DNA of 64,000 nucleotides, taken from the NCBI GenBank assembly GCA_043813075.1, contig JBDRLL010000006.1, positions 5,043 to 69,042 on the forward strand, given 5' to 3'. Source of the DNA: Candidatus Altiarchaeota archaeon (GTDB taxonomy: Archaea > Altiarchaeota > Altiarchaeia > IMC4 > SCGC-AAA252-I15). The number at the start of each line of letters is the position of its first letter. The first letter of the stretch is position 1. The notes under the pieces were generated by a model. That model made no database searches. It saw only the letters and a program-made list of their open reading frames with translations, and was not told the origin of the DNA. Positions 15,716 to 54,612 of this stretch are shown piece by piece. The position numbers were made by a program, and so were the translations under genes.

Positions 15716-16591
15716 ATGCTAGTCACAGCCGTCATATGGGTCACGCTGCTTTTCCTGATACTGGACAGCATAATAGACTTGAAGACCGGCGAGATACCGG
15801 AGAAGCTGACGCACGGCCTAACAGGGATCATCATCCTGCTGGCGGTCGGCCACGGAATCATTGAGAACAGTATTTCGATGGTGAAGTCGACTATCCTTGT
15901 GGGCGCATCATATTTCATCGCAGGGTATGTCCTTTATCGACTAGGGCAGTGGGGGGGTGGCGACGTCAAGATGATGGCTGGCATAGGATGCGCGCTAGGA
16001 TACCTCGATTCCATGGGATACGCGTGGCCCAATTCCATCATAACAGGGTACTACCTGACGTATTTCATAAACATGTCGATTTTTGCCATACCCTACGCGG
16101 TAACCTACTCTCTGATACTTGGTTTCATGAACCCCAGCGTATTCAGGGAATTCCTTAGTGGTGTTAGGGAGTTTAAGGTCGTCATACTCCTAGCAGTCTC
16201 GTTCGCGCCCGCATTATTGTCCACGTATTTTGGTGAAAGCCTGCTCGCGCTCGTTTACCTTATGCTGCCGTTTTTCATGCTCGCGACGATTTACCTCAAG
16301 GTCGTCGAGAAGAAACTGCTGTGCAAGACGGTCAGGGTCGAGGAGCTTAGAGTCGGGGACATACCAGCGGAAGACATCCAGTGTGAGGGAGAGAGGATAG
16401 CCTCCAAGATGATTGAGGGCATAACAGGGGAAGAGCTGGAGAGAATAACGAGGTTGGCGTGGGAGGGGAGGATACCTGACGAGGTTAAGATACGTTGGGG
16501 CATCAAGTTCGCGCCAATACTCCTGGCATCATATGTTATGACACTATGGCAGGGCAGCCTGCTGGAGATCTTCTTCAACAACATACTGTGA
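15716..16591 (+). CDS. A24-family prepilin peptidase (EppA/PibD-like)
   Basis: DLKTGEIP and GGGDVKMM aspartate motifs, multiple TM segments, C-terminal GIKFAPIL. Confidence 0.88.
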   Translation: MLVTAVIWVTLLFLILDSIIDLKTGEIPEKLTHGLTGIIILLAVGHGIIENSISMVKSTILVGASYFIAGYVLYRLGQWGGGDVKMMAGIGCALGYLDSMGYAWPNSIITGYYLTYFINMSIFAIPYAVTYSLILGFMNPSVFREFLSGVREFKVVILLAVSFAPALLSTYFGESLLALVYLMLPFFMLATIYLKVVEKKLLCKTVRVEELRVGDIPAEDIQCEGERIASKMIEGITGEELERITRLAWEGRIPDEVKIRWGIKFAPILLASYVMTLWQGSLLEIFFNNIL

Positions 16592-23816: not shown

Positions 23817-24316
23817 GCTATCTGCTGGAGTAGGCTGTTCACGCGGGCTATTTCAGCGACAAGACTGTCTATGTGCTCGCTGTTGTCGACTTCAGAGTAC
23901 TGTTCACTACACTTCCGGCATATGAAGCTGGCTTCCATTGCGATCTCGTATGGGACGCGCTCGCACTCGCACTGGAATGTGATGCTCCCGGTCTCGTCCT
24001 TCAGCGCCGAGTTAAGCTCATCTATGCGCTTGCTCAGATAGCTGGATATGAAGGAGTCTATCTTATCCTCCCGCCTGTTCCACAGGTAGGTGTACCATCC
24101 AGTCCGCTTATTCTTGGTCCTCTGGTACTCCACGAGACTGTTCTGATGCAGCTCGTTCAGTATCGTCCGGACGATCGTGGCCTTCAAATCCAGTTCAGCG
24201 GCCACATCTTCATCGTATTTTGGTTTGTCGAGTCGTTTCAGAACATTGAAGTGATCTTCGCTCAGACTTTCGACGAGAATGTCCTGTACAATATTAGACT
24301 TCCACTTAGAAGACAT
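23813..24316 (-). CDS. tfe: transcription factor E alpha
   Basis: DEDVAAEL...VRTILNELH, TGWYTYLW, Zn ribbon CEC...FICRKC. Confidence 0.93.
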   Translation of the reverse strand: MSSKWKSNIVQDILVESLSEDHFNVLKRLDKPKYDEDVAAELDLKATIVRTILNELHQNSLVEYQRTKNKRTGWYTYLWNRREDKIDSFISSYLSKRIDELNSALKDETGSITFQCECERVPYEIAMEASFICRKCSEQYSEVDNSEHIDSLVAEIARVNSLLQQIA

Positions 24317-24374
24317 GGACTATTCTACGATATATTAGCTTAAATAATGAATTGAACATTGTACTTTTTGGTGT

Positions 24375-25616
24375 TTATGTTGAGGATGATGAGGATGAGG
24401 ATGTGGATATGACGTATGAACTTGACGTGCTTGATGTGGTGGCTGTGGTGCTGGTAGTAATGCTCGTCGTAGTGGTGATTATGCAGTTAGGACCGTACAA
24501 TCCAAGCGAGACCTTGTAGCCTCCCGGACAGTATTCCCTCCCCCAGAAGCTCTCGTTATAGCAGTCGACCATGATGTGGTAGGTGCCTGCCATCAGATTA
24601 CTGACTGCGCAGGACTCGGGCTCGCCCAGGAAACCCAAGTCTATAGGATGCCTAGGGCAGTCCCATTCAGGCCACTCGTATGGCCATATGCCGTAGTATA
24701 TGCGGGGGCAGAATTCTGGCGTCCAGTTCACGTACAAGTCATAGTCGCTGTCCGCGTCAGGCTGCATTATCACCTCGACGTCACAGACACTACCTTCAGG
24801 TATTGTGAAGAAGTGGTAGTTGTAATCGTCGCCGTGGGTATTGTACTCCCGTTCACTGTCCTCAAGCCTGCATCCACCGTACACTGGCGGGCAATCCCAG
24901 CAATTCGGGACGGTAGTTGAAGTCGAAGTTGTAGTGGTGCTGGTAGTGGTTGTTGAAGTGGACGTGGTAGTCGTGGTGGTCGGCGCTGGCCCGAACTCAT
25001 TCCACGAGACGTCAAACTCCACGGTGGAAAGCTTCTGTCCTGCCGGAACCCGTATGAAAAACAAGTCTTCAACAATGTCGGGAGGGTCATAAACAAGGTC
25101 TAGGTCCCTGTGCAGGATAGGACACCCGCGGATCCTGCACACGTAATCAATGCTCCAGGTGAAGTTCTCGAGAAGCCATGCCCTAGCAACCCATCCCTCG
25201 CGCGGGGTGTCGGCCATGTAGCCGGAAAGCAGGCGGGAGGCGCTAGCCTCATCCCCAGAATCCTTCTCGCTAGTCCTGGTGCCCCCTGAGTCGTAGATGA
25301 CTTGGCTGACGCTGACACCAGCAATCTCAAGACGGTACCCCATGTTCGGGGGGACCATGTTGTCCAAATACTCTCGAGTCAGATTCCCTGCGCCTGAGAC
25401 ATTGCCGGAAGAGTAGAGGAAACCAATCTCCTCGAGAACACCCTTCTTGTTGAGGGTCTCGATAGAATCCTGCGCCACGCCATGAGCCTTCTGGAAGGCG
25501 GCCTTCTCCACCTTACTGGCCCTGAAGTAATGTAGGCCTATGAATCCAGCCATTATGAAAAGCACCATGGAGAGCGATATCAACGCATCCCACGTGAGGA
25601 TATACCCTTTCTTCAT
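24375..25616 (-). CDS. type IV pilin-like protein with PPC-like domain
   Basis: MKKG/YILTWDAL plus hydrophobic helix; Thr linker; SDYDLYV...GEPESC...AGTYHIMV. Confidence 0.7.
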   Translation of the reverse strand: MKKGYILTWDALISLSMVLFIMAGFIGLHYFRASKVEKAAFQKAHGVAQDSIETLNKKGVLEEIGFLYSSGNVSGAGNLTREYLDNMVPPNMGYRLEIAGVSVSQVIYDSGGTRTSEKDSGDEASASRLLSGYMADTPREGWVARAWLLENFTWSIDYVCRIRGCPILHRDLDLVYDPPDIVEDLFFIRVPAGQKLSTVEFDVSWNEFGPAPTTTTTTSTSTTTTSTTTTSTSTTVPNCWDCPPVYGGCRLEDSEREYNTHGDDYNYHFFTIPEGSVCDVEVIMQPDADSDYDLYVNWTPEFCPRIYYGIWPYEWPEWDCPRHPIDLGFLGEPESCAVSNLMAGTYHIMVDCYNESFWGREYCPGGYKVSLGLYGPNCIITTTTSITTSTTATTSSTSSSYVISTSSSSSSST

Positions 25617-25647
25617 TATCTAAGAAACTATTATCCCTAGCCGTTTA

Positions 25648-27405
25648 TTAGACTACCTCGGGTTTTGGGTACACTAGTATGACGCGCAGGTATCCTACAT
25701 CTATGTAGTCTGCGGCAATGCGGCTCCACCTGCCCAACCCGGGGCTGGTTGAATTCTCCCTGCCTACCGCGTAATAACAGTACCGGCCTTCAGCATACTC
25801 CTTCGTGGTCCAGATGTGCTTGCAGTTCTTATCGCCGGGACATATCATCACGTCAGTCCTCCAGGGGATGTCAGGTGCGTCGGTGAACGGGTTCGTTATC
25901 TCCCCCAATTCGAAGTCGTTGGCGGACTTGCCGGAAGGATGAGCGGCATAATCCAGACAATCGAACTTAGGCTTACCTATGACACTCGAGAATGGGAAGA
26001 ATACTCCGTCACTCACGACAAGCTTCTCCATGCCGTCAGTGGCAGTGCCGCTCACGTTAAGGAAGATTGTCTCATCAACCTTGGCCAGCTTGCCCCAAGA
26101 GTCGTTGTATGCCATTATGGTGACAGCCAGGTCACCGTAGATGCACCTGTTGTTGTAGCAGACTTCACAACCCTCCCAGCAGGTGGAAGAGTCGACGCAA
26201 TACTCCCCGCAATCACCCTTCTCACATATGTAGGTGGCGGGGTCTCCGTCCACCTCAACGGGGTAGACGTCGCAGTAGCGGCAGCCAAGCTCGCATTCCT
26301 CGATAGTAGGGTCTTCAGCACTGCAGTTCTTGCCGCAGTCACCCTGCTCGCAGCGGAAACCCGCTTGGATTGATGTATTGCAGTAGAGGCATCTTTCCTC
26401 GCACTCCTCGTAATAGTCGAACTCGTCGCAAGACGCGCCGCAAGATCCATTCGGCTCGCACGTGTATACATCACGGCCCAGCCGGTAGTCATACTGCTGC
26501 CAGCAGTACTCGCACTCGAACTCCTCCTCGTTAAGCCAGATATCCATCTCACACTCTTCAGGGAATCCTCTAGGATGCCAGCAAGGCAGTCCGCACGTAT
26601 CATCCTCCTTCTTCTCCTCGCACTTGCCGCCCGGCCCTGAGACGGAGAGGTTACACCACTTGCAGGGATTCGGACCCTCATCCTCGAGATAGTCGCAGTC
26701 CTCGTCAGCCTCACAGTATTCATCGCACTTGCCGGATGGAACGCACCTCTGGTCCTGGTTGCAGTACGGGCACGCGCTATCCTGCATCTCCTCCTCGCAT
26801 ATGATGGAGAAGCTTCCGGGATCAGGGCAGAACATGTAGCATACGGACACCGGCAGGCTCGTTGTAGTGAGGAACGGCGGGACGCTCCATGGCTCCTCTA
26901 TGTGGCCGTAGAGCTTGCCCACACTCTCAAGCTCGCTGCCGGAGACTGTGTTTACGTAGTTGACGACAACGTCCGCGTCATAGTAGTCCCCTATACGGTA
27001 ATTGTTTTCAATGGACTGGCCTATGGCACAGCTGGATTCTATGACAACTGAGTCCTGTGGGTTTATCACCACTTCTTCAGCCGGGACTGGAGTGCACTCG
27101 ACGATGCCGAAAGACACGTTAACCCCGTAGATGGGTATCCTAACGGGAACGTCGCCCTCATTCTTTACTTTAACGTATATCGAGTTGTTCTGGGCTATAA
27201 CCCAGTCGACTGGGATGACCTGTGAGAACCCAGCCCAACCCCTCCGCTGGATGAGAGGCTTTAAAACGCCAGTCTGCCAGAGGAGGACCAGCGTTATGGA
27301 GAGGAAAAGGATTACTAGGGAAAACACTAGCAGATTTTCTACAGATATCTGGCCTTTAAACCCCTTAACCCTATTAGATGAACGCACAAGCATCCTTTTT
27401 AACAC
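25648..27405 (-). CDS. type IV pilin-like protein with six six-Cys modules
   Basis: KG/QISVE plus hydrophobic helix; 36 Cys in six C-x3-C-xn-C-xn-C-x2-C-xn-C units. The start may be ATG 27393. Confidence 0.75.
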   Translation of the reverse strand: MLKRMLVRSSNRVKGFKGQISVENLLVFSLVILFLSITLVLLWQTGVLKPLIQRRGWAGFSQVIPVDWVIAQNNSIYVKVKNEGDVPVRIPIYGVNVSFGIVECTPVPAEEVVINPQDSVVIESSCAIGQSIENNYRIGDYYDADVVVNYVNTVSGSELESVGKLYGHIEEPWSVPPFLTTTSLPVSVCYMFCPDPGSFSIICEEEMQDSACPYCNQDQRCVPSGKCDEYCEADEDCDYLEDEGPNPCKWCNLSVSGPGGKCEEKKEDDTCGLPCWHPRGFPEECEMDIWLNEEEFECEYCWQQYDYRLGRDVYTCEPNGSCGASCDEFDYYEECEERCLYCNTSIQAGFRCEQGDCGKNCSAEDPTIEECELGCRYCDVYPVEVDGDPATYICEKGDCGEYCVDSSTCWEGCEVCYNNRCIYGDLAVTIMAYNDSWGKLAKVDETIFLNVSGTATDGMEKLVVSDGVFFPFSSVIGKPKFDCLDYAAHPSGKSANDFELGEITNPFTDAPDIPWRTDVMICPGDKNCKHIWTTKEYAEGRYCYYAVGRENSTSPGLGRWSRIAADYIDVGYLRVILVYPKPEVV

Positions 27406-27467
27406 AGATTAATTAATTATTAAAGTCATTCGCAATATTAAAGACATTCAAAAAAGAAGGTGGTTAA

Positions 27468-28325
27468 ATGAGAAAGATAATACTATCTGCCCTAGCATTG
27501 TTCATAATATCAAGCACGTGTTCGGCGACGTTCATACGCATGGATGTGCTATTGAACACGCCGCCGTTAATAGAGGAGGACAACTTCCTGATTAACGTCA
27601 CGGTAACCAACAGCGGCGACGAGCCTGCCCACGACGTTCAGTTAGGCCTTAACCTGCCTGAAGGATTCACGTCAGATGAGATATACGTTGGCACGCTGAA
27701 CCCTAACCGGCCTTTCAACGGTTATTTCAAGGTTTCAACCGACAATGTGCTGCCAGGCAGATATCCCATAATAATGAAGACGCATTACGCTGACGCCAAC
27801 GCCTACCCGTTCTCTACGATAGCCCCTAAATTCATAGACTTCAAGATGCACTCCAAGTCCGACACAATGGCGAAGATGGAGAACATCGAGTTGGGGGCTG
27901 ACGAGGATGAAGGCAGAGACATAAAGCTTACTGTCATAAACAGGGACACCGCACCACACACATACTCTGTGAGAATGCACACGCCCAACGAGATTGTGGT
28001 GGAGACGATGAGCCAGAGCGTCGACGTGCCCGCCACCGGCGAGAAGGAGGTTTTATTCAGGGTGAAGCCTTTCGGGGCGATATCGAACAGCGCGTATGTT
28101 GTGGCAGCAACCCTGGAATACGAAGACTCTGCGAGTGGGAGCACCATGCACCGTTCATTCATAGCCACAGGACTTGTGAAGATAGTTGATGCCGGCCGGA
28201 TGGATTACATCCCGAACTGGCTGCCCGTAGCAGCACTGATATTACTGATAGCCGTCTTCGTGTCACTGCAGCTAAAGAAGAGGGCGAGTGGCGGGGATAA
28301 GAAGAGGGAGTATAAGGTGGATTAG
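27468..28325 (+). CDS. membrane-anchored CARDB/Ig-like surface protein
   Basis: Signal peptide, VTVTNSGDEPAHDV..LNLPEGF, C-terminal TM plus KKR. Confidence 0.65.
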   Translation: MRKIILSALALFIISSTCSATFIRMDVLLNTPPLIEEDNFLINVTVTNSGDEPAHDVQLGLNLPEGFTSDEIYVGTLNPNRPFNGYFKVSTDNVLPGRYPIIMKTHYADANAYPFSTIAPKFIDFKMHSKSDTMAKMENIELGADEDEGRDIKLTVINRDTAPHTYSVRMHTPNEIVVETMSQSVDVPATGEKEVLFRVKPFGAISNSAYVVAATLEYEDSASGSTMHRSFIATGLVKIVDAGRMDYIPNWLPVAALILLIAVFVSLQLKKRASGGDKKREYKVD

Positions 28326-28380: not shown

Positions 28381-30684
28381 ATGAGTGGTAAATCAGAGAC
28401 AAAAGAGAAAAAGACTGCTAAGCACAAGCAGGATAAGAAATTCAAGGTGGACATAAAATACGGTGGATATGACCTGAAGTTCAACATAAAGCCAACACCA
28501 CAACTGATATCCAACATACTCGTATTCCTTATAATATACTGGTACCTGCTCTCCATATTCACCCCCAAACTGATGCTGTTGGAGACCATAACAACAGGCG
28601 GGGACACGGCCTCACACTACTACCCGACTAAATTCCTCAAGGAAGAGCTCATACCAAAGGGGCATATAATCGGCTGGCTGCCGGGATGGTACGGTGGTAT
28701 GCCATTGTTCCAGTTCTATTTCCCAGTCCTATTCGTCCTGATAGCATTCATGAGCTACGTGATACCGCTACAGATAGCCTTCAAGATTGTGAGCGCGTTA
28801 GGGGTGTTCCTGCTGCCGTTAACCGCGTTCCTTGCCATGAGAGTCATGAAATTCAGGTATCCGATGCCCATCATAGCCGCCATATTCACGATGCCGTTCC
28901 TATTCATGGAGTCGCACACGATGTGGGGCGGCAACATACCGAGCACGCTAGCTGGAGAATTCACTTACGGCTGCAGCATGTCGCTGATGGTGCTGCTGCT
29001 TGCAATGATATACAGGGGGCTTGAGGAGGACAAATGGATAATCAGGAACGCTGTTTTCATGGCCATAGTCTGCTTGACGCACGTTTACACGATAATATTC
29101 ACTGTCGCCTCGATACCATACCTTTATTTCACTAGGAACGTCAAGGAGTTAAAAAGGAGGATAGTGTACTCCCTGAAAGTCTACCCCCTGGCAATCATGC
29201 TGACAGGATTCTGGCTTATCCCGCTTCTCGCAAGACACAAGTGGACTGCAGTATACGACTTCGTGTGGGACATCACGGAAGAGGTGTTCCCGGTGCTCCT
29301 GTATCCGTTCTTCCTTTTCATGATTATTGGGATACACATGATGATCATAAACCAGGATAAGAGGGTGGGGTTCATGTTCTTCTCGATAATAGCGTCATTA
29401 CTGTTGTTCAAGTTCGGGAGCCTGCTTGGCGCCGGAATGGTTGACATAAGGTTCCTCCCGTTCACATACCTCTACACCCTCCTCATCGCAGCATACGGGA
29501 TGTACACTTTGGTGAAGAATGTTGAGGGGGCCTGGATTCTGCCGCTCATAATCGTCTTCCTAACCCTATTTTGGATAAACGAGTACAACGTAAGCGTCCC
29601 CAATGAAGGAGTCACCATGGACTTCATAGTGCAGGAACTCAAAAACTTCAGGTATCATGGCTTCACACCCTCATGGGTGAAGTGGAACTACGACGGCTTC
29701 GAGAGGAAGATGCGGTGGGCAGAGTTCAAGGAGGTGAACGACTACCTGACTGGGACATACAATGACCCTAGAGTAAAGTTCGAGCACAACGACCACCACA
29801 ACGAGGCGGGAACGGTCAGGGCCTACGAGTCCGTCCCACTCTTCGCTGGAAGGTCGATACTTGAGGGGTTGTACATGCAGTCGATACACACTTCAGTGTT
29901 CTCGTTCCTCATTCAGGCAGAAGTCTCAAAACAACAGTCATGCCCCTACTGGCACCGGTTCCCGTGCACGCATTTTGACATAGAAAACGGGACCAAACAC
30001 ATGCTAATGTTCAACGTGCGGCACATAATAGTCAGGAGCGACATGCTGAAGGAGGCGCTGCGGGAGAGAGAAGACTACAAGATGGTCTTGGAGACAGACA
30101 ACCATGAGATATGGGAGCTGACTGATAACACAGGCCATTATGTGACAGTGCCCCAGTATGAGCCGGTGCTCTTCAAGACAGACACCTGGCTGAATGACTC
30201 ATACAACTGGTTCAGGAACATGAGCCTGATAGACACGCCGCTCGTGTTTGTGGAGGAGATAGAGCCGGAGGACGCAGTATACTTCAGAAACGTCAAGGAA
30301 GATGGGGATTGGAGGGACATCCCGAAGGTGCCATTAGACAATAACTGCAACATAGAGGAGAAGCTGACTGCGGACGAGATATGGTTCAAGACGGACTGCG
30401 TGGGCAAACCACACATAATAAGCGTGTCCTACTACCCTAGCTGGAGGCCGGTCGGGGCAGATAAAGTGTATCTGATATCGCCTTCATTCATGATGGTAAT
30501 ACCAGAGCAGGAGGAGGTTAGGCTTGTGTACAGTAAGCTTCCGGAGGACTGGATAGGGCTTTTACTGAGTTTCACTGGATTTTTGACGGTATCCTGTGTC
30601 ATAGCATACTACGGTAATGGTAGGGTGAGGAAGATGATTGACGGTAGCATGCTGGGTGACGCATACAGGAAGTACGCTTCCTAG
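28381..30684 (+). CDS. GT-C-type membrane protein (PTPS-related/YfhO-like)
   Basis: TTGGDTASH, WLPGWYGGMPLFQFYFP, GGNIPSTLAGEF, many TM segments, C-terminal SYYPSW. Confidence 0.8.
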   Translation: MSGKSETKEKKTAKHKQDKKFKVDIKYGGYDLKFNIKPTPQLISNILVFLIIYWYLLSIFTPKLMLLETITTGGDTASHYYPTKFLKEELIPKGHIIGWLPGWYGGMPLFQFYFPVLFVLIAFMSYVIPLQIAFKIVSALGVFLLPLTAFLAMRVMKFRYPMPIIAAIFTMPFLFMESHTMWGGNIPSTLAGEFTYGCSMSLMVLLLAMIYRGLEEDKWIIRNAVFMAIVCLTHVYTIIFTVASIPYLYFTRNVKELKRRIVYSLKVYPLAIMLTGFWLIPLLARHKWTAVYDFVWDITEEVFPVLLYPFFLFMIIGIHMMIINQDKRVGFMFFSIIASLLLFKFGSLLGAGMVDIRFLPFTYLYTLLIAAYGMYTLVKNVEGAWILPLIIVFLTLFWINEYNVSVPNEGVTMDFIVQELKNFRYHGFTPSWVKWNYDGFERKMRWAEFKEVNDYLTGTYNDPRVKFEHNDHHNEAGTVRAYESVPLFAGRSILEGLYMQSIHTSVFSFLIQAEVSKQQSCPYWHRFPCTHFDIENGTKHMLMFNVRHIIVRSDMLKEALREREDYKMVLETDNHEIWELTDNTGHYVTVPQYEPVLFKTDTWLNDSYNWFRNMSLIDTPLVFVEEIEPEDAVYFRNVKEDGDWRDIPKVPLDNNCNIEEKLTADEIWFKTDCVGKPHIISVSYYPSWRPVGADKVYLISPSFMMVIPEQEEVRLVYSKLPEDWIGLLLSFTGFLTVSCVIAYYGNGRVRKMIDGSMLGDAYRKYAS

Positions 30685-31373
30685 CGGACTTTAAGCCAGA
30701 GGGAAACCAGGTTTTTGAAGCGGTAGAATATCTCGTTCACTAGGTTGAATTTGCTTCCCCTAGTGTCATTGCAGAAGACGGGTATCTCAACAACGCTGCC
30801 GCCATCCTTCTTTACGTGATAAACCAGTTCGATCACGTAGGATGAGCCGTGGTCTATGTCCTTCACGTAGGGGAGTATGTCAGACCTAACCCAACCCTTG
30901 GTGCCTATGCTATAGTCGCGGTAGTCCAGCCCCAGCAGCGCTCGGACCAGCTGTATGAATACGCCGCTTATGAATGTCCTGTAAGCCTTCCTCTCCTGCT
31001 TCCCCAGGTACTTTGAGCCTATGACCACGCTATTATCATCTAGCTTGGAGACGCAGTCTTTTATGAAGCTGAGGTCTGAAGATAGATCCATGTCGAGGGA
31101 TACAAGCTTCTCTGAGGATGCTGCGTCAACCATCTTGGTGAAGGCGTAGCCTACGCCACGACGGGGTATGAATAGGAACCTGAATCTGCCGGGATACCTT
31201 TCCTCGAGAACACGCCCCAATTCCACCGTACGGTCCGTGGAACCGTTGCTGCATACTATAACCTCGTATTCGCCAATCTTCGCCTTATCAAGGTATTTTA
31301 TCAGCTTGCCGGTGTTTTCAACGAGCAGCTCCTCCTCATTGTAGACAGGTATCATAACGGAAAAGTCCATCAT
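30681..31373 (-). CDS. GT2 glycosyltransferase
   Basis: IPVYNEE, NGSTDRT, SLDMDLS. Confidence 0.88.
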   Translation of the reverse strand: MMDFSVMIPVYNEEELLVENTGKLIKYLDKAKIGEYEVIVCSNGSTDRTVELGRVLEERYPGRFRFLFIPRRGVGYAFTKMVDAASSEKLVSLDMDLSSDLSFIKDCVSKLDDNSVVIGSKYLGKQERKAYRTFISGVFIQLVRALLGLDYRDYSIGTKGWVRSDILPYVKDIDHGSSYVIELVYHVKKDGGSVVEIPVFCNDTRGSKFNLVNEIFYRFKNLVSLWLKVR

Positions 31374-31412: not shown

Positions 31413-31859
31413 GTGACCGGGAAAAAGGCTAAGAACGCTGGGAAGGGGTTTAGTGCGCGTGGAAAAGGCATTGCCCATAGGAGACTAGCGTATGCCATTA
31501 TTGTTATCATAGCGTACTCTCTGCCAGCATACCTGTTGTATGAGAACTACTCGAAGAACGACAAGAGCAGTATGGACGGCGGGTGGGGGTACGGCACCGG
31601 AGTGTTCGAGGCCCTTGACGAGGATGCGCTGATACTTAGCAGATGGTCGGCTTACACCCTCCTCAACCACTTCAAGTACGTGGTGTATGATAGGGGGGAT
31701 GTGACCATACTTTCGAGGCGTAAGATCGACTGGCTTAAGGAGGTTGACAGGAACTATGGTGAGAAGCCAGTATACTTGACTGAGATGGATGATAAGGTCT
31801 CTGAGAAATACGTTCTAGAGAGGGTCGGTGGGATATATCATGTCAAGAAAAGGAAATAG
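31413..31859 (+). CDS. C-terminal module of a DUF2723/TMEM260-like transferase (split gene)
   Basis: TM plus LPAYLLYENYSKNDKS...YG...ALDEDALILSRW.....L.HFKYV...RGDV...KPVYL, matching the usual C-terminal part of DUF2723 proteins. Confidence 0.65.
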   Translation: MTGKKAKNAGKGFSARGKGIAHRRLAYAIIVIIAYSLPAYLLYENYSKNDKSSMDGGWGYGTGVFEALDEDALILSRWSAYTLLNHFKYVVYDRGDVTILSRRKIDWLKEVDRNYGEKPVYLTEMDDKVSEKYVLERVGGIYHVKKRK

Positions 31860-32931
31860 GTGGGGGGGTGTCACTCCAGGGCTTATCGTATTCACAACCA
31901 CGCTAGTCGTGTATCTTAGCACAGTGTCTACAAACGTTGGTAGGGGGGATACGGGAGAATTCCAGACGCTCCCATATGTGTTCGGCATAGCGCATCCAAC
32001 GGGATACCCCACATACATCCTACTGGGTAGCGTATTCAGATGGATTCCGCTAGGTTCTTATGCATACAGGATTAACCTCATGTCCGCATTCTTCGGGTCG
32101 GTTACCGCATACCTCCTTTACAGGATTGTAATGAAGTACGCGGAAAACGTGTATGCCGCTTCAGCCGCCGCCCTAACCCTCGCCTTCAGCAAGCTATACT
32201 GGAGCCAGTCGGTCATAGCGGAAGCATATATCCTGAACGCATTCTTCCTCGTCTCATGCCTACTACTACTGCTTGAATGGAGGGATGGGGGAGACAACAG
32301 ACTACTCTACGCGTTTAGCATACTATATGGCATTGGCTTAGGCAACCACATGTCCCTCGCACTCTACGCCCCGGCCTACGCATTCATAATACTTAGGAGG
32401 GATTGGAGGGTGCTGCTTGACGGCAGATTATTGAAGATGTTCGCCTTATTCGCCATAGGAGCCTCAGTCTACGCCTACATCCTAATACGCGACAACCCCG
32501 GGACCCCGATGAACTACATACACGAGTTCTCGGTGGAACACGGGACGTTCAACTACTCCGAAAACGCCGTTAAAGACAGGTTCGAGAGGCTTGGCTGGAT
32601 GGTCAAGGGACGGCAGTTCAACGCAGACGAACTGACATACAAGAGGCTTACTAGCACCATGGAAGAGCAGAGACTACGGGAGTCATGGGGAAGGATTATG
32701 GAGCAGATAACAGTCTTCGGGGCTATACTCTGCATCATTGGAGTCTCACGCCTCTTCATGAAGGACAAGCCGATGCTGGCTGCAACAATCATCTTCTTCA
32801 CGCTAAACACCATGAGGTTTGGTGGTGGAATGTACGAGCACAGCATACCTTCAGTGATAATATGCTGCATATGGATAGGATTCGGTGTTGAACAAACGTC
32901 AGAATACGTGCGTCAGAGAGTGCTGGTGTAG
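31840..32931 (+). CDS. N-terminal DUF2723/TMEM260-like GT-C domain (split gene)
   Basis: GDTGEFQ...GIAHPTGYPTY, RINLMSA, WSQSVIAEAY, GLGNH; ends just after IPS...IWIGFG. Confidence 0.85.
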   Translation: MSRKGNRWGGVTPGLIVFTTTLVVYLSTVSTNVGRGDTGEFQTLPYVFGIAHPTGYPTYILLGSVFRWIPLGSYAYRINLMSAFFGSVTAYLLYRIVMKYAENVYAASAAALTLAFSKLYWSQSVIAEAYILNAFFLVSCLLLLLEWRDGGDNRLLYAFSILYGIGLGNHMSLALYAPAYAFIILRRDWRVLLDGRLLKMFALFAIGASVYAYILIRDNPGTPMNYIHEFSVEHGTFNYSENAVKDRFERLGWMVKGRQFNADELTYKRLTSTMEEQRLRESWGRIMEQITVFGAILCIIGVSRLFMKDKPMLAATIIFFTLNTMRFGGGMYEHSIPSVIICCIWIGFGVEQTSEYVRQRVLV

Positions 32932-34475
32932 TTCACGTGCCTGAACAGCTGGGCGTACCTTCGCTCGTCTATAATCTCGTAATCACCGCTCTCATTGACT
33001 GTATACACGGACTCCAGCTCATTGCGTACGAGACGCGTGTCAAGCAGGACGAAATCCACGTCCGTGTCCGGATGCACTCCACTATCCTTGATGCCGTATA
33101 GGTTCACCCTAAACGGGTTGGGGAACATGTAGACACGCTCCCTGTGGGTCAGATGGGACACAAAGTTGTAGGATGCCGAGACCCTAGCATCTTCTGGAAT
33201 CAACTCCATCAACTCCAACACCTCAGCATACTCCCCATGAGGCCTGCCAAGCTTGGTTATGGTATCCCAAGTCATCTCATAGTTGGATATCTTCGCTTCT
33301 CCAGGACCTATCTCCTCGTTCCCTATGAGGGTGAACACAACGAGTACAAGCAGGAGTCCGTATACACTCCATTTCCGTGACTTGTATCTGGCGACCCCGT
33401 TAATGATGGATATGAAGACGAATGGTATTATGGGGGTGACGTAGTGGAACCTGATTTCATGGGCGTATGACCAGTCGGTGATCAAGTTGAGGTACAGGGA
33501 GGCTGCCGCTGCCATGGACGGCAGGTCCAGGAAGAAGAGGAATCCGGTTGGAAATAGGACGTCCATGAAGTACTTGTAGTTCTTTGCTGTAACGACTTTG
33601 TTGAACATGAAGAATGGGTTGGTCAGGCTCTTGACCTTGTCCATCGTGGTCTTCCCGAAAGACCCGAGAGTCCTGCCGGTGTAGAACGCACCCTCAGTAT
33701 TGAAGTAGGGGAAGAAGACGTGCATCACTAGCAGCACCCATATTAGTGACGTTGCCGTCGTGACCGCGCCGACACGCTTGTCTATCTTGAAGAATATGTA
33801 TATGCCGAAGAGTATGTAGCTGAATGATATCTCCTCCTTGCATATGAGCGAGAAGAAATACATCGCATAGTATGCGCGGAACCTCCTGTGCATTAGAAAC
33901 CAGTAGCCGAAAAGCGTCAGGGGGACCATGAAGCTCTCATAATGGTAGCCTTGGTCGAGGTTAGAGTAGTGGACTGCGGGATAGAAGATGTATGCGAACG
34001 AGAATACCAGCGGAATCCAATAGCTGTCGAACTTATCCCTCGCAATAAGGTACACTGGTATGGCCCCGGCAGCCAGCACGAGAGTGTGCAGGAGTATCAG
34101 GGCGCGCACGTCATTCCAGAGCCAGTATAACGGGGCCACGAAGATGTGTATGAAAGAAGTGTGGTCTCCGAAGAAGTGAAGCCCCCTGGTCGTAAGGTAG
34201 GGTGTTTTAAAGCGGGATAAAAGCCAGATGCCCTGGTCAGGTATCCCCAAATCGAAGTTCCCATACCAGAACATGTTGTACTGGTTCAATACCGTGAAAC
34301 AGAATACCAGCAGGTATAGACCGATCATGAGCGCCAGGATCATATAAGGAACTATCCTCGAACCCTTAATCCACCCACACGCAAGTGAGGCCTTATTCAA
34401 AATAGGCTTAAAACCCAATTTTTTCGCGATCCCAATCCTAGAGCTCTTCTTTGCCTTACGTCCCTTAGAAGCCAC
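32913..34475 (-). CDS. DUF2079 GT-C-like membrane protein
   Basis: FDLGIPDQGIW, HFFGDHTS, KEE, FHYVTPIIPF, HLTHRERVYMFPNP; likely GTG start at 34475. Confidence 0.82.
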   Translation of the reverse strand: MASKGRKAKKSSRIGIAKKLGFKPILNKASLACGWIKGSRIVPYMILALMIGLYLLVFCFTVLNQYNMFWYGNFDLGIPDQGIWLLSRFKTPYLTTRGLHFFGDHTSFIHIFVAPLYWLWNDVRALILLHTLVLAAGAIPVYLIARDKFDSYWIPLVFSFAYIFYPAVHYSNLDQGYHYESFMVPLTLFGYWFLMHRRFRAYYAMYFFSLICKEEISFSYILFGIYIFFKIDKRVGAVTTATSLIWVLLVMHVFFPYFNTEGAFYTGRTLGSFGKTTMDKVKSLTNPFFMFNKVVTAKNYKYFMDVLFPTGFLFFLDLPSMAAAASLYLNLITDWSYAHEIRFHYVTPIIPFVFISIINGVARYKSRKWSVYGLLLVLVVFTLIGNEEIGPGEAKISNYEMTWDTITKLGRPHGEYAEVLELMELIPEDARVSASYNFVSHLTHRERVYMFPNPFRVNLYGIKDSGVHPDTDVDFVLLDTRLVRNELESVYTVNESGDYEIIDERRYAQLFRHVNYTSTL

Positions 34476-34515
34476 TTTAGAAACAATATTTACATTAACA
34501 ACATTAATATTAAGC

Positions 34516-35232
34516 ATGACCCGGGTTTTAGTGATGCTGCCCACATACAATGAGGCTGAGAACATAGGGAGCATTATAGGAGACATCCTGGAGCAAGGAG
34601 AGGATGTGGACGTGCTGGTTGTGGACGACTCTTCGCCGGACGGAACATGGAGGATAGTGGAGGGGATTTCATCAGAGAACTCCAGGGTCAATCTACTGAA
34701 GCGCGAGGGAAAGAGGGGTAGGGGCCTGGCGGGGGTGGAGGGATACAAGTACGGTATTGAGAACAAGTACGATGCCATACTTGAGATGGACGCGGACTAC
34801 AGCCATGACCCGGAGCACATACCTGAACTCCTTAAAGCCCTTGAAGACGCAGACGTCGTTCTTGGGTCTAGGCTGGTGGAAGGCGGGATGGAGACGGGTA
34901 GACCGTGGATGCGGAGGATTATCACAAAACTCGCAAACACATATATAAGGCTGATGCTGGGGTTGGACGTGAGGGACTGCAATTCCGGATTCAGATGCTT
35001 CAAACGCGAGGTGCTTGAGGCCATAAAGCCGGAGACCATAACGTCTGAGGGACCTGGCATAGTGCAGGAGGCACTTTTCAAGGCCCACTTAAAAGGATTC
35101 AGGATAAGGGAGGTCCCCATACGATTCAAAGACAGGGTTGCCGGGGAATCCAAGCTGGGTGTAGGCGCTTTAATTAGCGGATACACTTTAATATTAAAGT
35201 TGAAGTTTCATAGTATGTTAGGTGGTGATTGA
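34516..35232 (+). CDS. polyprenol/dolichol-phosphate mannose synthase-like GT2
   Basis: LPTYNEAENI, VDDSSPDGT, EMDADYSHDP, DCNSGFR, EVPIRFKDR..GESK. Confidence 0.9.
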   Translation: MTRVLVMLPTYNEAENIGSIIGDILEQGEDVDVLVVDDSSPDGTWRIVEGISSENSRVNLLKREGKRGRGLAGVEGYKYGIENKYDAILEMDADYSHDPEHIPELLKALEDADVVLGSRLVEGGMETGRPWMRRIITKLANTYIRLMLGLDVRDCNSGFRCFKREVLEAIKPETITSEGPGIVQEALFKAHLKGFRIREVPIRFKDRVAGESKLGVGALISGYTLILKLKFHSMLGGD

Positions 35233-36173: not shown

Positions 36174-37292
36174 CTAGACGCATAACACGCATATCTCGTC
36201 GCCTGCTATGAAGGCGTCGCAGTTGGCGTCCACATACTGGCCTATCTTCTTATGCCTGAGTTGGCATGCTGCTTGCGCTGACTGCAGGTCGCGCTGGCAG
36301 CTGCTGCCTGGAAGCACGTTACTGCAGCTAACTGGTGGTGACTGGGACTTGCAGGTGACGCACAATTCATCTCCAGGATTGAATGCATCGCAGTTGGCAT
36401 TAACAGTCTGGTCCACCACCTTGCCCTGAAGCTGGCATGAAGACTGTGCCGCCTGGAGGGTGCGCTGGCAGCTGCTGCCCTGCAGGACGCTGCTGCACTT
36501 GACTGCAGGTGACGGAGACTTGCATTTAACGCACAATTCGTCCCCTGGATTCATGCGGTCGCAGTTAGCCTGCTGGGTCTGGTCGATGACCATGTTCATA
36601 AGCTGGCATGAAGACTGTGCCGCCTGCATGTCGCGCTGGCAGCTGCTGCCTGGAAGCACCTGGTTGCAGGGCGTGAAAGGTGAAGGCGCCTTGCAAGTGA
36701 CGCAGACTTCTGGTCCGATCCTGAATGCATCACAGTCAACGGTGATTACCTGGTCGACGACCATGTTCTTAAGCCCGCACGCCGCCTGGGCTGCCTGAAG
36801 GTCGCGCTGACAGCTACTGCCTGGAAGCACCTTGCGACAGGAGGACTTTGGGGGAAGGGTTGTGGTCGTGGTTGTGGACTTACACTGCCTTAAGCCCCTG
36901 CAGTCAGGGTCCTTGCAGTCGACCAGGCCGTCACAGTCGTCGTCCGCCTTGTTAGAGCATTTTTTCCCCTTCTCGCTCCCGGATTTCTTGCAGTTGGGGT
37001 CTGCGCAGTCTATGAGTCCGTCACAGTCGTCGTCAACCCCGTTAGAGCATTTATTACGCATCTCCTTCCCCCGCATCGAGTTCTTGCATCCAGGATCCTT
37101 GCAGTCGACCAGGCCGTCGCGGTCGTCATCCACACCGTTAGAGCACTTCTTCCTGCCCTTCTCAGGACGTGACTTGCCCTTCTTGGAGGATACTGTTGAG
37201 GCAAGAGCCCAAGTCACTAGGATAAGCACCATGATGACTACAAGAGTCTTCTGGCTTGTTTTTCGGAGCCTTACATTCATAGAGGAGGACAT
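36174..37292 (-). CDS. exported Cys-rich repeat protein (three DDDxDGLxDC repeats plus four 57-aa six-Cys repeats)
   Basis: N-terminal hydrophobic helix; repeats visible at DNA level with a 171-bp period; start at 37292 or 37280. Confidence 0.8.
   Translation of the reverse strand: MSSSMNVRLRKTSQKTLVVIMVLILVTWALASTVSSKKGKSRPEKGRKKCSNGVDDDRDGLVDCKDPGCKNSMRGKEMRNKCSNGVDDDCDGLIDCADPNCKKSGSEKGKKCSNKADDDCDGLVDCKDPDCRGLRQCKSTTTTTTLPPKSSCRKVLPGSSCQRDLQAAQAACGLKNMVVDQVITVDCDAFRIGPEVCVTCKAPSPFTPCNQVLPGSSCQRDMQAAQSSCQLMNMVIDQTQQANCDRMNPGDELCVKCKSPSPAVKCSSVLQGSSCQRTLQAAQSSCQLQGKVVDQTVNANCDAFNPGDELCVTCKSQSPPVSCSNVLPGSSCQRDLQSAQAACQLRHKKIGQYVDANCDAFIAGDEICVLCV
36177..36842 (-). repeat. four-copy 171-bp coding tandem repeat
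   Basis: GGCAGCTGCTGCC-like anchors at 36296, 36467, 36638 and 36809. Confidence 0.85.
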
Positions 37293-37329
37293 TACGTAAA
37301 GATAATAGGCGTATTTAATTAAAAAAAAG

Positions 37330-39318
37330 TCAGGTGAAGCAGGGCATCCAGTCGAGTGGCGTGTCGTCTGCAACATCCGCTTCACCGAGCTTGCTGCAGT
37401 ATCCAAGGTCGCTTTCACCGGTGACTATGAAGTTGTACGTGTTCCCAGTCAAGTCCGCCAACCGCGGGTTGTTGAAGTTCACCTCACACGTCATGTTGTA
37501 GTACGTCGGATCCGCGTCAACATACTCTGTCTTGCATGCGTCAAGGAATAGGTAGTCTGTGCCATTGTCAAGGTAGAACGCCCAGTAAGTCTCCTCGTCA
37601 AAGCCGTGAGTACCAAGCCAGTATACGCTGACATCCTTGACGTCGCCGCATGTGACAGGCTCCCCGTCAACGTTAATCCAGTATATCCTGTCGATAGTAC
37701 CTCCTGGAATGCATTTCTCCTTAAGGCCTCCGGGATTGAATCCGGACAGCTCGGTGTAGGATATGCAGCCCTTTAGGAGCACGTTCCTGCTGTAGACTGC
37801 GTCGGCGATGAAGTTCATTTCTGGCGTGCAGTAGCCGGCGTAATCCTCTGCAGTGACTATAAGGTTATGGAATCCGTCGGCAGCATCCAGGTTGACGGGC
37901 ACGTTCACGTTGCATATCATGTCGTAGTTGTATGCGCGCTCAGGATCCTCGGGGGTTGTGTTCGTGCTATTGCAGGAGTCCAGATAGTGGGCTCCATCAT
38001 CCAGGAAGAAAGCCCAGTGATTGAAGTCGCTGTTATGGTTGCCATGCCATCTGACGGTGATGTCAAGGGACTTGCCGCACTGTAGGGGACGCAGCACTGT
38101 GACGTCGTCTATGACGACCACTGGATTAGCGCCGTCAAAACAATCGAATTGAGCCTCCCCGACGCATGACACGACGTGGGTGTTGGGGGACAGCGTTGTC
38201 GTCGTGGTTGTCGACACTATAGGTTCATATCGTCCGCTACTCCATATAACAACCCTCTGCTTGAATGTGTTTTTCAGTATCCTCTGTTTCCCGCTCAACA
38301 GGGTCAGGTCATCCATAGGCTCGCTGAATGACGCTGTCTTGACACTGCTGACGAAATCTGGAACCTCATCGCTCATAACGTGGTTTCCGACGATGCACTC
38401 CTTGATGCTGTTCGGGTTTCCATAGGACCAGGTATTGCTGTTTCGGGGGTCGTAGAGTGCATCAGTGGTCAGTAGGACAACGTCTATCAGGCTGTTGGGG
38501 TCTGTGTTGTCAAAGTATAGTTGTATCGAGTGTCCAGCGAATACACCGCCGACCTTGCTCCATTCAACGGAGCCTCTTAGAGTATTGAAGATGTAGAACG
38601 GCTCGCCGTCGACGACTATCTGGAGCACAGTGCTGCTGCTGAGGCCCCTAACCCATATGTGGTAGTAGCCTGGAGTCGTCTCAACAGTCTTCACGTTGTT
38701 GCCGTCATACTGCAGTTCGCTCATGAAACCGGCGGAACAACCGCGACTACATCGACTGGTCGTGTTAAACCCCCAGAATCGCTCGTCCTCAGCCTCAATC
38801 CATATGTGGGTGTCTGTGGTGTGGTTTGTTATGGTGAAGTTGAATCCGTTGAGGCATGATACTGGACGGTTATTTTCGTCGAGATGAATGCCCTGCATGC
38901 AACCAACATCTGACGTGTTGATGCACGAGTATACTATGTAGAAGTCGTATCTGCTGGAGCCGAGAAGACTCCTCCTTATATCAGTGTAATTCTCCTCCAG
39001 GTTCTTGATGAAATTCAACAGCTTATCAGGGTCGACGATACGATCCTGGAAGAAGACTCGCTCGCCGACAGGGGTTATGTCCGAAAGACCGTAGACTTTA
39101 ACCGTATCCTGCTTCCAGTCTTCAGGGTATCCGGGAGTCTTAACCAGCTGCTCGCCGACGGAGTCTGACAGCCACTGCATCTCGAATATCCTAAGGTCGC
39201 CGCTGATGTCCATTGTGACCGAATCCCAGAGGTAGATTACTATGGAGAATATGACTAGGAACAATACCGCCGAGAATGTGAGATCCCATGTGAATACCTG
39301 CCCCCTGCCCCCCCTCAA
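37330..39318 (-). CDS. type IV pilin-like protein with CBM-like and tandem Ig-like domains
   Basis: RG/QVFTWD plus hydrophobic helix, LVKTPGYPEDW, WIEAE..YHIWVRG..IDVVLLTTD..YDP, duplicated WxGxH..WAFxLD domain; likely TTG start at 39318. Confidence 0.72.
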   Translation of the reverse strand: MRGGRGQVFTWDLTFSAVLFLVIFSIVIYLWDSVTMDISGDLRIFEMQWLSDSVGEQLVKTPGYPEDWKQDTVKVYGLSDITPVGERVFFQDRIVDPDKLLNFIKNLEENYTDIRRSLLGSSRYDFYIVYSCINTSDVGCMQGIHLDENNRPVSCLNGFNFTITNHTTDTHIWIEAEDERFWGFNTTSRCSRGCSAGFMSELQYDGNNVKTVETTPGYYHIWVRGLSSSTVLQIVVDGEPFYIFNTLRGSVEWSKVGGVFAGHSIQLYFDNTDPNSLIDVVLLTTDALYDPRNSNTWSYGNPNSIKECIVGNHVMSDEVPDFVSSVKTASFSEPMDDLTLLSGKQRILKNTFKQRVVIWSSGRYEPIVSTTTTTTLSPNTHVVSCVGEAQFDCFDGANPVVVIDDVTVLRPLQCGKSLDITVRWHGNHNSDFNHWAFFLDDGAHYLDSCNSTNTTPEDPERAYNYDMICNVNVPVNLDAADGFHNLIVTAEDYAGYCTPEMNFIADAVYSRNVLLKGCISYTELSGFNPGGLKEKCIPGGTIDRIYWINVDGEPVTCGDVKDVSVYWLGTHGFDEETYWAFYLDNGTDYLFLDACKTEYVDADPTYYNMTCEVNFNNPRLADLTGNTYNFIVTGESDLGYCSKLGEADVADDTPLDWMPCFT

Positions 39319-39319
39319 C

Positions 39320-40276
39320 TTAGGGATACGTGATGCATACGTCATCGTTAGTGTTTAAAGTGATTTTACTGCCGTCAGCGTTAATCCATACCCAGTCAGT
39401 ACCCAACGGCGCTTCGAGGGGGTTAATACACATCCTGAAGCCCGTGGAGTTGAAGACAAACATTACCCCATCCAATTCTCCTGGTGTTGGGTTCCATACG
39501 CCCTCAGGCTCGACGTTCAGGCTGAACTCGCCCACATCGTCGGAGTATATGCTATCCAGATCCCCCATTATGTCGTGGAAATCCATCTTCACCACATCGT
39601 CGACCTTGTGGCGTATCACGAAGTCCAGTTGATCGGAATCCGTGTCCTCATACACATACATCAGGCTGCCGCCGTTGACGAGATGGGTTTCAGCCATGGA
39701 CGTGGAAGCGAGGTAAGCGTCGTCAGAACCGATGAAAGGAGAGACCATCACATTCAAGCCGCGGGACATGAGATTGTATCTCTCGGTGATGTAAACCCTG
39801 CCCTGACGCCTCAACACCCTCGCGTCAATGGACTCGTTGACGTGGATGCACCTCTCGCTCACACTCACATTGCAGAGTCCATTGCAATGCCGGAGAAAAC
39901 ACTCCACCCTCATCGTTGATATTGGAGCGCTGAAGTAGAGGGTCTTACCCCTCGCGAAAGCAGACCCCTTGACGAAGACTGTAGGCTGGTCTGGGAAGAA
40001 ACTCACGTTATAATCGCTGAAAGCATAAAGACGGGCTGGAATGTTGAAATACATCCAGTAGCCGTCACCCACCATGTTGACGGTGTTGATATTGTCGGCA
40101 ATAGAGGTCACAGCAAGGAGGCCATCTATGTAAACCTTGAAGTCGCTTGTTCTGACATACTTCAGGTATATAACGTAACTGGACATCATGAAGATCATGA
40201 GGAGGATTCCCATGACTGCGATAAACTCGACTGTTACTTGACTTGAATTCGACTTGCAGTGGATCATTGCAGGCAA
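39320..40276 (-). CDS. type IV pilin-like protein
   Basis: SS/QVTVEF plus hydrophobic helix, IADNINTV..VGDGY. Confidence 0.68.
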   Translation of the reverse strand: MPAMIHCKSNSSQVTVEFIAVMGILLMIFMMSSYVIYLKYVRTSDFKVYIDGLLAVTSIADNINTVNMVGDGYWMYFNIPARLYAFSDYNVSFFPDQPTVFVKGSAFARGKTLYFSAPISTMRVECFLRHCNGLCNVSVSERCIHVNESIDARVLRRQGRVYITERYNLMSRGLNVMVSPFIGSDDAYLASTSMAETHLVNGGSLMYVYEDTDSDQLDFVIRHKVDDVVKMDFHDIMGDLDSIYSDDVGEFSLNVEPEGVWNPTPGELDGVMFVFNSTGFRMCINPLEAPLGTDWVWINADGSKITLNTNDDVCITYP

Positions 40277-40283
40277 ACCATAA

Positions 40284-40712
40284 TCATATCTGGGTTACAT
40301 TAATCTCCGTGTCCGAAAGGGACTCGACCCTGAATACGTAATAACCCTCCCTAACCAGACCAGATAGATCGCCGTAGACCCTGCCTTTTGAGACGCTGTA
40401 TATGTCGGTGTAGGAGGGACCGATGCCGACGCGGACGTTGAACGTGTTATTGTTCAGGATAGAAGCTTCCTCAACATTAGGGGGTATGTATATGTTGACT
40501 TGGGTTCTGGAGGGGTGGCCGTGGACGTATATGAAGTCGGATGCGTCTCTAAGCTTCTCGACCGCACGGTAAGCGGAATCCACCCCAACCTGGGCGCTTG
40601 ACGTGGATATGAGGGTGCTCGTTACGTAGAGTATGGCCGAGAATACGGCAAGCGATAGTGCAAGCATTATCATGTATTCAAGCGATGCCTGGCCCCTTCT
40701 AAACCCGTTCAT
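40284..40712 (-). CDS. class III signal peptide (DUF361-type) pilin
   Basis: RRG/QASLEY plus hydrophobic helix; ASDFIYVHG.PS...VYIP. Confidence 0.85.
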   Translation of the reverse strand: MNGFRRGQASLEYMIMLALSLAVFSAILYVTSTLISTSSAQVGVDSAYRAVEKLRDASDFIYVHGHPSRTQVNIYIPPNVEEASILNNNTFNVRVGIGPSYTDIYSVSKGRVYGDLSGLVREGYYVFRVESLSDTEINVTQI

Positions 40713-52320: not shown

Positions 52321-52326
52321 GGTAGA

Positions 52327-54566: not shown

Positions 54567-54612
54567 GTGTTTCAGATTACACATAAATCTAGGAACTTAT
54601 ATAACAACCTTG

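Follow-up and report, generated by a model that had tools for sequence, protein, structure and literature searches.

What are six consecutive groups of six cysteines doing in a protein that begins like an archaeal pilin? The question is raised by a gene on the minus strand (25648..27405) of a 64,000-nucleotide stretch of contig JBDRLL010000006.1 from a Candidatus Altiarchaeota archaeon, referred to here as the window. According to the open reading frame listing and its translation, the gene encodes 585 amino acids that comprise a pilin domain, six Cys modules and a C-terminal beta-sandwich. A first-pass annotation of this DNA had read the modules as cystine-knot scaffolds whose variable binding loops are displayed on a pilus. 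We suggest that an Altiarchaeota-like archaeon makes here a surface protein of type IV pilin-like kind, which carries a knottin-type stalk and a C-terminal sandwich and plays no role as a carboxypeptidase inhibitor. We put the probability of this explanation as a whole only slightly above one half (about 0.55). Our confidence in a pilin bearing a disulfide-rich modular stalk is higher than our confidence in the knot itself.

The cysteine array and its pilin anchor

Window positions 26143-26841, which a script maps to residues 189-421, contain 36 cysteines. As the first-pass annotation had proposed, these divide into six units of the form C-x3-C-xn-C-xn-C-x2-C-xn-C; all the Cys motifs it quoted lie within these residues, and both the gap lists and shuffling support the division. 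Module 1 (26743..26841, minus strand as are all the others; residues 189-221) has Cys gaps of 3, 9, 8, 2 and 5 residues and is matched by the unit profile. Module 2 (26620..26727, residues 227-262; gaps 3, 5, 10, 2, 10) has an acidic D-x-D-C loop and, of all six, the spacing closest to that of the potato carboxypeptidase inhibitor (PCI). Long loops distinguish module 3 (26458..26595, residues 271-316; gaps 3, 9, 12, 2, 14). It is followed by module 4 (26350..26442, residues 322-352; gaps 3, 8, 3, 2, 9), which is included in the model of units 4-6 described below, by module 5 (26224..26337, residues 357-394; gaps 3, 9, 3, 2, 15) and by the shortest unit, module 6 (26143..26211, residues 399-421; gaps 3, 5, 3, 2, 4). 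The second gap of five residues claimed for units 2 and 6 is thus correct. Linkers of 5, 8, 5, 4 and 4 residues separate the successive units.

Such a regular arrangement is not expected by chance. The x3 and x2 gaps are in register in 12 of 12 cases, and the best of 200,000 shuffles of the stretch reached 8 of 12 (p < 5e-6). The array consists of 15.5% Cys and 24.5% Asp plus Glu, has a net charge of -42 and contains a single His. Its 36 cysteines are nearly invariant among relatives at 30-63% identity. The two spacings that had been called fixed differ in this respect: C4-x2-C5 is invariant family-wide, whereas the x3 gap holds only within the window protein, because in most homologues C1 and C2 are separated by four residues in unit 1 and by two in unit 3.

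The N-terminus identifies the anchor. Residues 1-18 (27352..27405, minus strand) form a class III, prepilin-type signal with predicted cleavage after Gly18, in K-G/Q-I-S-V-E, where the slash marks the cut. G18, Q19 and E23 hardly vary within the family, and 93 of 155 proteins have GQxxxE inside their first 60 residues. The deposited protein P0002 (559 amino acids) begins at residue 27 and is devoid of the charged N-region and of the G/Q cleavage site that homologues keep; the signal is therefore hidden in it. The true translation start may be Met5. A TATA-like element, TTTAATAA, lies about 15-22 nucleotides upstream of the GTG and would be consistent with near-leaderless initiation at Met5; the host being an archaeon, a scan for sigma-70 promoters and terminators gave nothing informative.

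The mature pilin domain (26896..27351, minus strand) consists of a hydrophobic N-terminal helix at residues 19-45 and a beta-sandwich that reaches to near residue 170, in which Cys104 and Cys126 form a conserved pair. Pfam and NCBIfam scans of the whole protein gave no match, and a profile of the whole family found among PDB sequences a weak archaellin N-terminus alone (E 2.3). A profile made from 50 small pilins, from which the window protein had been left out (A11), matches the window protein over residues 15-170 with E 7e-36. The same profile finds 8fk7_A (E 3.3e-6) and 8q30_A (E 1.1e-4) in the PDB, which PMC10334743 and PMC11178815 describe as the type IV pilus subunit of Pyrobaculum calidifontis and the Aap subunit of Sulfolobus acidocaldarius, respectively. 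Seven of the 50 small relatives are also matched by the NCBIfam model UpsA (best E 9e-4).

A full-length AlphaFold model built on 22 sequences (mean predicted local distance difference test, pLDDT, 75.5) shows the helix at 19-45 and strands between 56 and 168 arranged as a beta-sandwich at pLDDT 85-92. With this model Foldseek returned 8fk7_A (E 4.4e-4, probability 1.00) and 8q30 (E 2.6e-3), as well as CARDB and macroglobulin-type sandwiches. The earlier label of pilin-like is confirmed: the class III signal, the helix that follows it and a beta-sandwich with homology to solved pilins mark the window protein as an archaeal type IV pilin. It shares these three features, the last by both profile and model, with Aap (8Q30), the P. 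calidifontis pilin (8FK7) and UpsA. Unlike these, which have about 140 residues, it bears a C-terminal extension of 415 residues, as do many relatives in the phylum. Such an extension is reminiscent of minor pilins or tip adhesins in bacteria.

Between pilin domain and array lies a Thr-rich linker (26842..26895, minus strand; residues 171-188), which is read directly in the sequence and is disordered in the model; pLDDT falls below 50 for residues 176-187. Behind the array, residues 425-585 (25651..26133, minus strand) form a C-terminal beta-sandwich with four conserved Cys. AlphaFold renders this domain all-beta, with a second sandwich at 426-570 (pLDDT 80-95), and its ESM Atlas model resembles Ig-like and macroglobulin-type sandwiches at template modelling (TM) scores of 0.54-0.57. 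The matches of a profile of this domain are confined to the protein family itself.

Are the modules knottins?

Six Cys per module of about 25-45 residues, and the loop lengths between them, lie inside the known knottin range. We ran eight module profiles against 177,635 PDB sequences. The profile of unit 6 orthologues matched a single entry, 6jic_A (E 0.002), and when it was built from 11 orthologues the same entry came first again (E 0.0043, the next match having E 0.5). As a control, the unit 6 profile reached a maximum of 9.1 bits on 17,836 sequences, which included the genome's own Cys-rich proteins and reversed decoys. 6JIC is the carboxypeptidase inhibitor of Lycium barbarum, which PMC9737898 lists among cystine-knot families. 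The profile of all units gave non-significant matches to the tomato inhibitor 2hlg_A (E 1.9), in which all six Cys are aligned, and to 6jic_A (E 4). In 2HLG and in potato 1H20 the disulfides join cysteines I-IV, II-V and III-VI, according to PMC10687636.

The resemblance to this family (potato, tomato and wolfberry inhibitors; PF02977; 1H20, 2HLG, 6JIC) goes beyond the two profile matches. Its members have six Cys in the arrangement C-x3-C-x5-C-xn-C-x2-C-xn-C, whose first two gaps equal those of units 2 and 6, and a start like C-G-K-P-C and an acidic residue before Cys III are common to both. The window units are archaeal and stand six in tandem within a 585-residue pilin, whereas the inhibitors are free plant peptides of 36-39 residues. 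In units 4-6 the III-IV loop is shorter (x3), and the loops in general are acidic and variable. The window units also have no C-terminal inhibitory tail: after Cys VI, 4-8 residues lead to the next unit or to the C-terminal domain. In inhibitors of the PCI type, as PMC10687636 describes it, a free tail after Cys VI enters the active site of the carboxypeptidase.

Structure prediction adds some evidence, at the level of models. In the full-length model DSSP shows, for each of units 2-6, a hairpin of the two strands that bear C5 and C6 (250-252/260-263, 300-306/311-317, 341-343/351-353, 377-380/392-395 and 415-417/420-422), while unit 1 has a single strand at 220-222. A separate AlphaFold model of units 4-6 (9 sequences, mean pLDDT 70.5, predicted TM score 0.53) contains similar C5/C6 strand pairs. 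Searched against the PDB, it gave no significant Foldseek match (best E 3.8). Squash, MCoTI and EETI inhibitors and spider omega-toxins, miniproteins which we take to be knottins, make up 11 of the 46 rows of this weak list, and the rows with the lowest root-mean-square deviation (0.8-1.6 A over some 21-23 columns) belong to this group. Further, the short segments that are kept in the family, C1-C2 and C4-x2-C5, are those that would form the ring of a knot. ESM Atlas gave no usable feature match for the array; the neighbours were Dickkopf and an EB module at TM scores of at most 0.32, and its own model had a pLDDT of 0.55.

Several results weigh against the knot. Profiles of units 1-5 found nothing significant in the PDB, so that a significant match exists at one of six unit positions. 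All units stay below the 25-bit gathering cut-off of the Pfam family CarbpepA_inh (PF02977), the best single unit having E 0.18. Sub-threshold matches to that family occur for unit 2 in two of eight orthologues (9.5 bits for the window's own unit 2) and for unit 6 in none of eight; Pfam Squash likewise gave sub-threshold matches only. The C1-x2-C2 segment that most homologues have in unit 3 would make a very tight ring for a knot. Finally, model confidence is middling: two of the five models of units 4-6 lie near pLDDT 45, and in the full-length model the array has pLDDT 54-82, dropping to 30-49 where unit 3 begins, over its first half.

The earlier claim of an array of cystine-knot scaffolds is supported in part. 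With moderate confidence, and from alignment to 2HLG and 6JIC, we regard the units as PCI-type knottins with I-IV, II-V and III-VI connectivity. More tentatively, and with odds somewhat below even, we hypothesize that they are cystine knots in the strict sense, which would be the first from Archaea, and kin of the plant PCI family by descent or by tight convergence. They would then exemplify a habit found across the phylum, in which type IV pilin anchors carry long arrays of unclassified disulfide-rich modules. The knottin fold class was reported in 2017 as yet unfound in archaea, and the listed records on knottins, cystine knots or disulfide-rich proteins together with archaea held nothing on archaeal knottins. 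If our assumption is true, an ultra-stable fold extends to the third domain of life.

A probable stalk and its alternatives

A profile search of 1.84 billion representative sequences gave 473 matches at E <= 1e-3, about 17 of them full-length. Most of the 150 matches listed are proteins of about 150 residues that cover profile positions 10-163 alone. Named relatives are annotated as "hypothetical protein" in metagenome-assembled genomes of Candidatus Altiarchaeota or Altiarchaeales. Of the phylum's 61 species genomes, 56 contain the pilin domain. The full protein is encoded by 10 of the 21 that make up the window's own family, with shorter forms in two more, and by none of the other 40. Other pilin-domain proteins of the phylum bear VWA, DUF2341, Laminin_G_3, PKD or Lcl_C heads, or huge Cys arrays.

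The unit itself is still more restricted. Its profile matches nine of the 61 genomes, and all matches but one lie within orthologues of the window protein. The exception is a minus-strand frame of 759 amino acids in another family of the order (locus L056, genome G008, contig C140), cut by the contig end, which belongs to a larger Cys-rich protein and contains a clear unit C-x3-C-x8-C-x3-C-x2-C-x6-C with a G-D-C-G-K-P-C start. No other protein of the window's own genome is matched by the unit profile (next best 12.3 bits). Word-index searches gave 2 matches among 153 candidates with the array alone, none beyond the family, and 7 matches among 2408 candidates with the unit profile against longer proteins, all from the same family.

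Relatives differ in the number of units held between the same two end domains. Most have six, P0022 has five, P0021 four and P0019 two, while P0025 (346 amino acids) and P0027 (358 amino acids) have both end domains and no unit at all, with a linker rich in Thr, Ser and Pro in its place. The units are related to each other: profile-profile probabilities amount to 96.7% for units 5 and 6, 94.5% for 4 and 5, 86.8% for 3 and 5, 82% for 2 and 4 and 55% for 1 and 3. A tree of the 78 units taken from 13 proteins shows 7 changes of position label, compared with 45-56 in 200 shuffles, and no repeat was found within the array at the DNA level. From this chain of similarities, the tree and the missing DNA repeat, we conclude at the level of sequence that the array is an old six-fold duplication that predates the divergence of these proteins. 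A recent repeat expansion was rejected, as the array has no DNA repeat.

Because the unit count varies among 0, 2, 4, 5 and 6 in relatives that keep both end domains, we take a rigid acidic stalk to be the most likely role of the array, in place of a display of binding loops; it is also the most economical one. The acidity of the array, kept in 19 of 19 relatives, and the heads borne by other pilin-domain proteins of the phylum likewise favour the stalk. A possible mechanism is as follows. Each mini-domain would fold independently into a three-disulfide knottin of the PCI type, in which C1-C2 and C4-x2-C5 form the ring of the knot and C5 and C6 belong to a beta-hairpin. The array as a whole would be rigid, resistant to proteases, strongly acidic and probably N-glycosylated; a C-x2-C-N-x-T sequon in unit 5 is kept in 11 of 13 relatives. 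The genome's single prepilin peptidase would cleave the signal, upon which the protein may join a type IV pilus as a minor subunit, or be anchored like one. The stalk would then set the C-terminal domain some nanometres off the filament or the cell. We infer the function as a stalk, the incorporation into a filament and the glycosylation alike. Against the pilus part of this scheme speaks the position of the gene, which lies apart from any pilus-assembly cluster.

The variable binding loops of the first-pass annotation could also mean that the knottins themselves are the functional head, binding or inhibiting proteases or capturing minerals or cations. Some observations fit this. Leaving cysteines aside, the array is 17-25% identical in distant homologues, whose pilin domains reach 33-41% and C-terminal domains 27-37%; a strong negative charge is found in the array of 19 of 19 relatives, and the acidic motif of unit 2, which resembles that of low-density lipoprotein receptor class A (LDL-A) modules, could bind Ca2+ or other cations. 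In the closest pair, however, the array is 67% identical and the rest 58-60%, so the array is no more divergent than its surroundings. Unit positions are old orthologous lineages that show no sign of having diversified by recent duplication, and the number of units falls from six to zero while both end domains persist. Moreover, no free tail follows C6 of the kind that PCI-family inhibitors insert into carboxypeptidase. We consider such a head quite improbable, the least probable of the alternatives weighed here, and prefer the stalk. A stalk might also be built from disulfide-rich modules that are not knotted, such as a ladder or folds like EGF, TNFR, PSI or furin repeats. Weak profile matches lead to the TNFR cysteine-rich domain of DcR3 (unit 3, E 0.31), the PSI domain of integrin beta-2 (unit 5, E 0.66) and the LDL-A acidic motif (unit 2, E 0.46). 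Foldseek also listed R-spondin furin repeats, Dkk4 and IGFBP, and the Dickkopf and EB modules near the array in ESM Atlas score about 0.3. The connectivity of the units is a prediction from alignment, and the C1-x2-C2 ring of unit 3 is very small in most homologues. Eukaryotic EGF, LDL-A and thrombospondin-type modules are often acidic and calcium-binding and form rod-like stalks. They too are strings of 30-45-residue, three-disulfide units; the array nevertheless has no significant match to them in sequence or fold, and its Cys spacing differs. Unknotted modules are the strongest rival to knottins, although we hold them to be unlikely, at something like one chance in five.

The third alternative dispenses with disulfides. 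Metal binding would make each unit a cluster like a zinc ribbon or Zn2Cys6, and the whole an extracellular metal-binding or redox array. Each unit has six Cys with two knuckle-like motifs (C-x2-4-C and C-x2-C), and its gaps resemble the fungal Zn2Cys6 pattern. Partial matches to RecQ5 C-x3-C-x2-C (E 0.5-1.5), the INSM1 zinc finger (E 0.18), ZnF-CW (E 0.23) and ZBTB38 (E 0.24) were obtained, all weak and non-significant (E >= 0.18). The lineage is anaerobic and its habitat reducing, and neither DsbB nor VKOR was found in the window's own genome; these points, together with the zinc-type matches, weigh against disulfides and hence against knottins. On the other hand, the window protein is extracellular and acidic and has a single His in its array, and 23 of 24 relatives have an even number of array cysteines, the exception being a short form. 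All six relatives with extra Cys have two or four more. The Cys-rich secreted proteins of the genome, described below, also speak for disulfides. Among all putative secreted proteins, on the contrary side, even counts prevail only mildly (107 even versus 89 odd). Beside a DsbD_2 gene stands a gene for a DsbA-like protein that is exported, with a transmembrane segment and a CPYC motif (DSBA, E 1.5e-26). Because extra cysteines come in pairs and such an exported protein exists, we favour disulfides over metal, and ligation of metal appears improbable to us, nearly as much so as a binding head.

Small disulfide-rich modules arranged head to tail with short linkers are also known from double-knot toxins and from secreted cysteine-rich repeat proteins (SCREPs), as presented in the available part of PMC6262176, whose survey of SCREPs covers bacteria and eukaryotes. 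Those proteins have two or few units and are soluble animal toxins or inhibitors that act by binding. In the window protein, the six units connect a pilin anchor with a beta-sandwich and are apparently a spacer. If true, this would be a mechanical use of knottins, apart from their known roles as toxins and inhibitors, and would provide natural tandem scaffolds of acid-rich knottins.

Traces of the gene exist in environmental sequence. Seven contigs of a biofilm metagenome match its DNA exactly, and a groundwater RNA library contains one 202-nucleotide contig that exactly matches 26406-26603, in unit 3. Such traces do not suffice to infer expression or a habitat. Evidence of transcription is confined to the one contig, and an RNA library may carry DNA, which counts against our explanation to that extent.

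Cysteine-rich proteins of the lineage and neighbouring genes

The array is not the only one of its kind in this lineage. Putative secreted proteins of the genome contain 3.3% Cys, compared with 1.3% in cytoplasmic ones, and many have CC or CxC arrays. Dozens of signal-bearing proteins of the same genome (G000) have 5-13% Cys in regular repeats, for example one of 1603 amino acids with 210 Cys, and another has eleven repeats of C-x10-C-x4-C-x5-C-xn-C-x-C. Their loci include C25:21542-26353, C32:33970-36570, C6:103594-107481, C41:4265-6349 and C33:54323-59485, among others (L008-L021). Of 14 such proteins compared with Pfam, 11 had no match at E <= 0.001. They were also considered as multihaem cytochromes, a reading we rejected because CxxCH occurs in none of the 11 Cys-rich proteins inspected.

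A sister family of the phylum (genomes G010-G012) has the same pilin N-domain fused to much longer Cys arrays. Four such pilins are encoded at L048:145-5571, L050:224-4105 (minus strand), L049:192-4625 and L052:203-2653, and the arrays have 1808 amino acids with 209 Cys, 1293 with 166, 1477 with 119 and 816 with 86. Their common repeat is approximately C-x2-C-x2-C-x4-6-C-x12-C-x6-C-x4-C-x5-C, and Pfam matches are limited to Lcl_C or DUF2341 near the end.

The finding thus exposes a large Cys-rich secretome without Pfam matches and raises the question of how disulfides are formed without DsbB or VKOR. The DsbA-like gene mentioned above is part of an operon-like run at C32:14736-18191 (L022) that encodes a DsbD_2 protein with HMA and cupredoxin-like ends, the DsbA-like protein, an FtrD-like protein and an HMA protein. 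Ca. Altiarchaeum hamiconexum is double-membraned according to PMC4460559, and its periplasm measures about 32 nm. If our assumptions hold, oxidative folding would take place on a large scale outside the cytoplasm in an anaerobic and possibly double-membraned archaeal lineage that has neither DsbB nor VKOR.

Machinery for processing the pilin is present in the window. A prepilin peptidase (Peptidase_A24 and Arc_PepC by Pfam; 15716..16591, plus strand), predicted to process the signal, represents the single Peptidase_A24 match in a genome of 1.80 Mb and 89% completeness. The genome has three clusters of ATPase and TadC genes, one of which adjoins paralogous small pilins.

A second pilin-like gene (24375..25616, minus strand; 413 amino acids) is co-oriented with the Cys-pilin gene, 31 bp downstream of it. 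It is syntenic in three of four loci (L004, L006 and L007), with none found in L005, and reaches 1145 amino acids in L006. Its N-terminal motif M-[KR]-K-G-Y...D-A-L-I-S-L, followed by a hydrophobic stretch, is conserved; the remainder has long runs of Thr and Ser and several Cys, and no Pfam family matched it. A tandem repeat of Thr codons (period 6/36) lies in this gene at 24912-24980, and a short repeat at 24377-24408 is the sole other one within 24300-27500.

On the other side, three genes are divergent from the pilin gene: a CARDB/NPCBM_assoc-like protein with a C-terminal transmembrane segment (27468-28325), syntenic in all four loci, followed by a PTPS_related membrane protein of 767 amino acids (28381-30684) and a GT2 glycosyltransferase (30681-31373), each syntenic in two of four. 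More glycosylation genes lie at 31828-34778 and 51163-56895. Large open reading frames at 36174-40276, without Pfam match, adjoin the gene for a small pilin of 142 amino acids (40284-40712, minus strand) whose class III signal belongs to another type. In L005 a homologue of this small pilin (78-512) precedes the Cys-pilin orthologue by about 7.5 kb.

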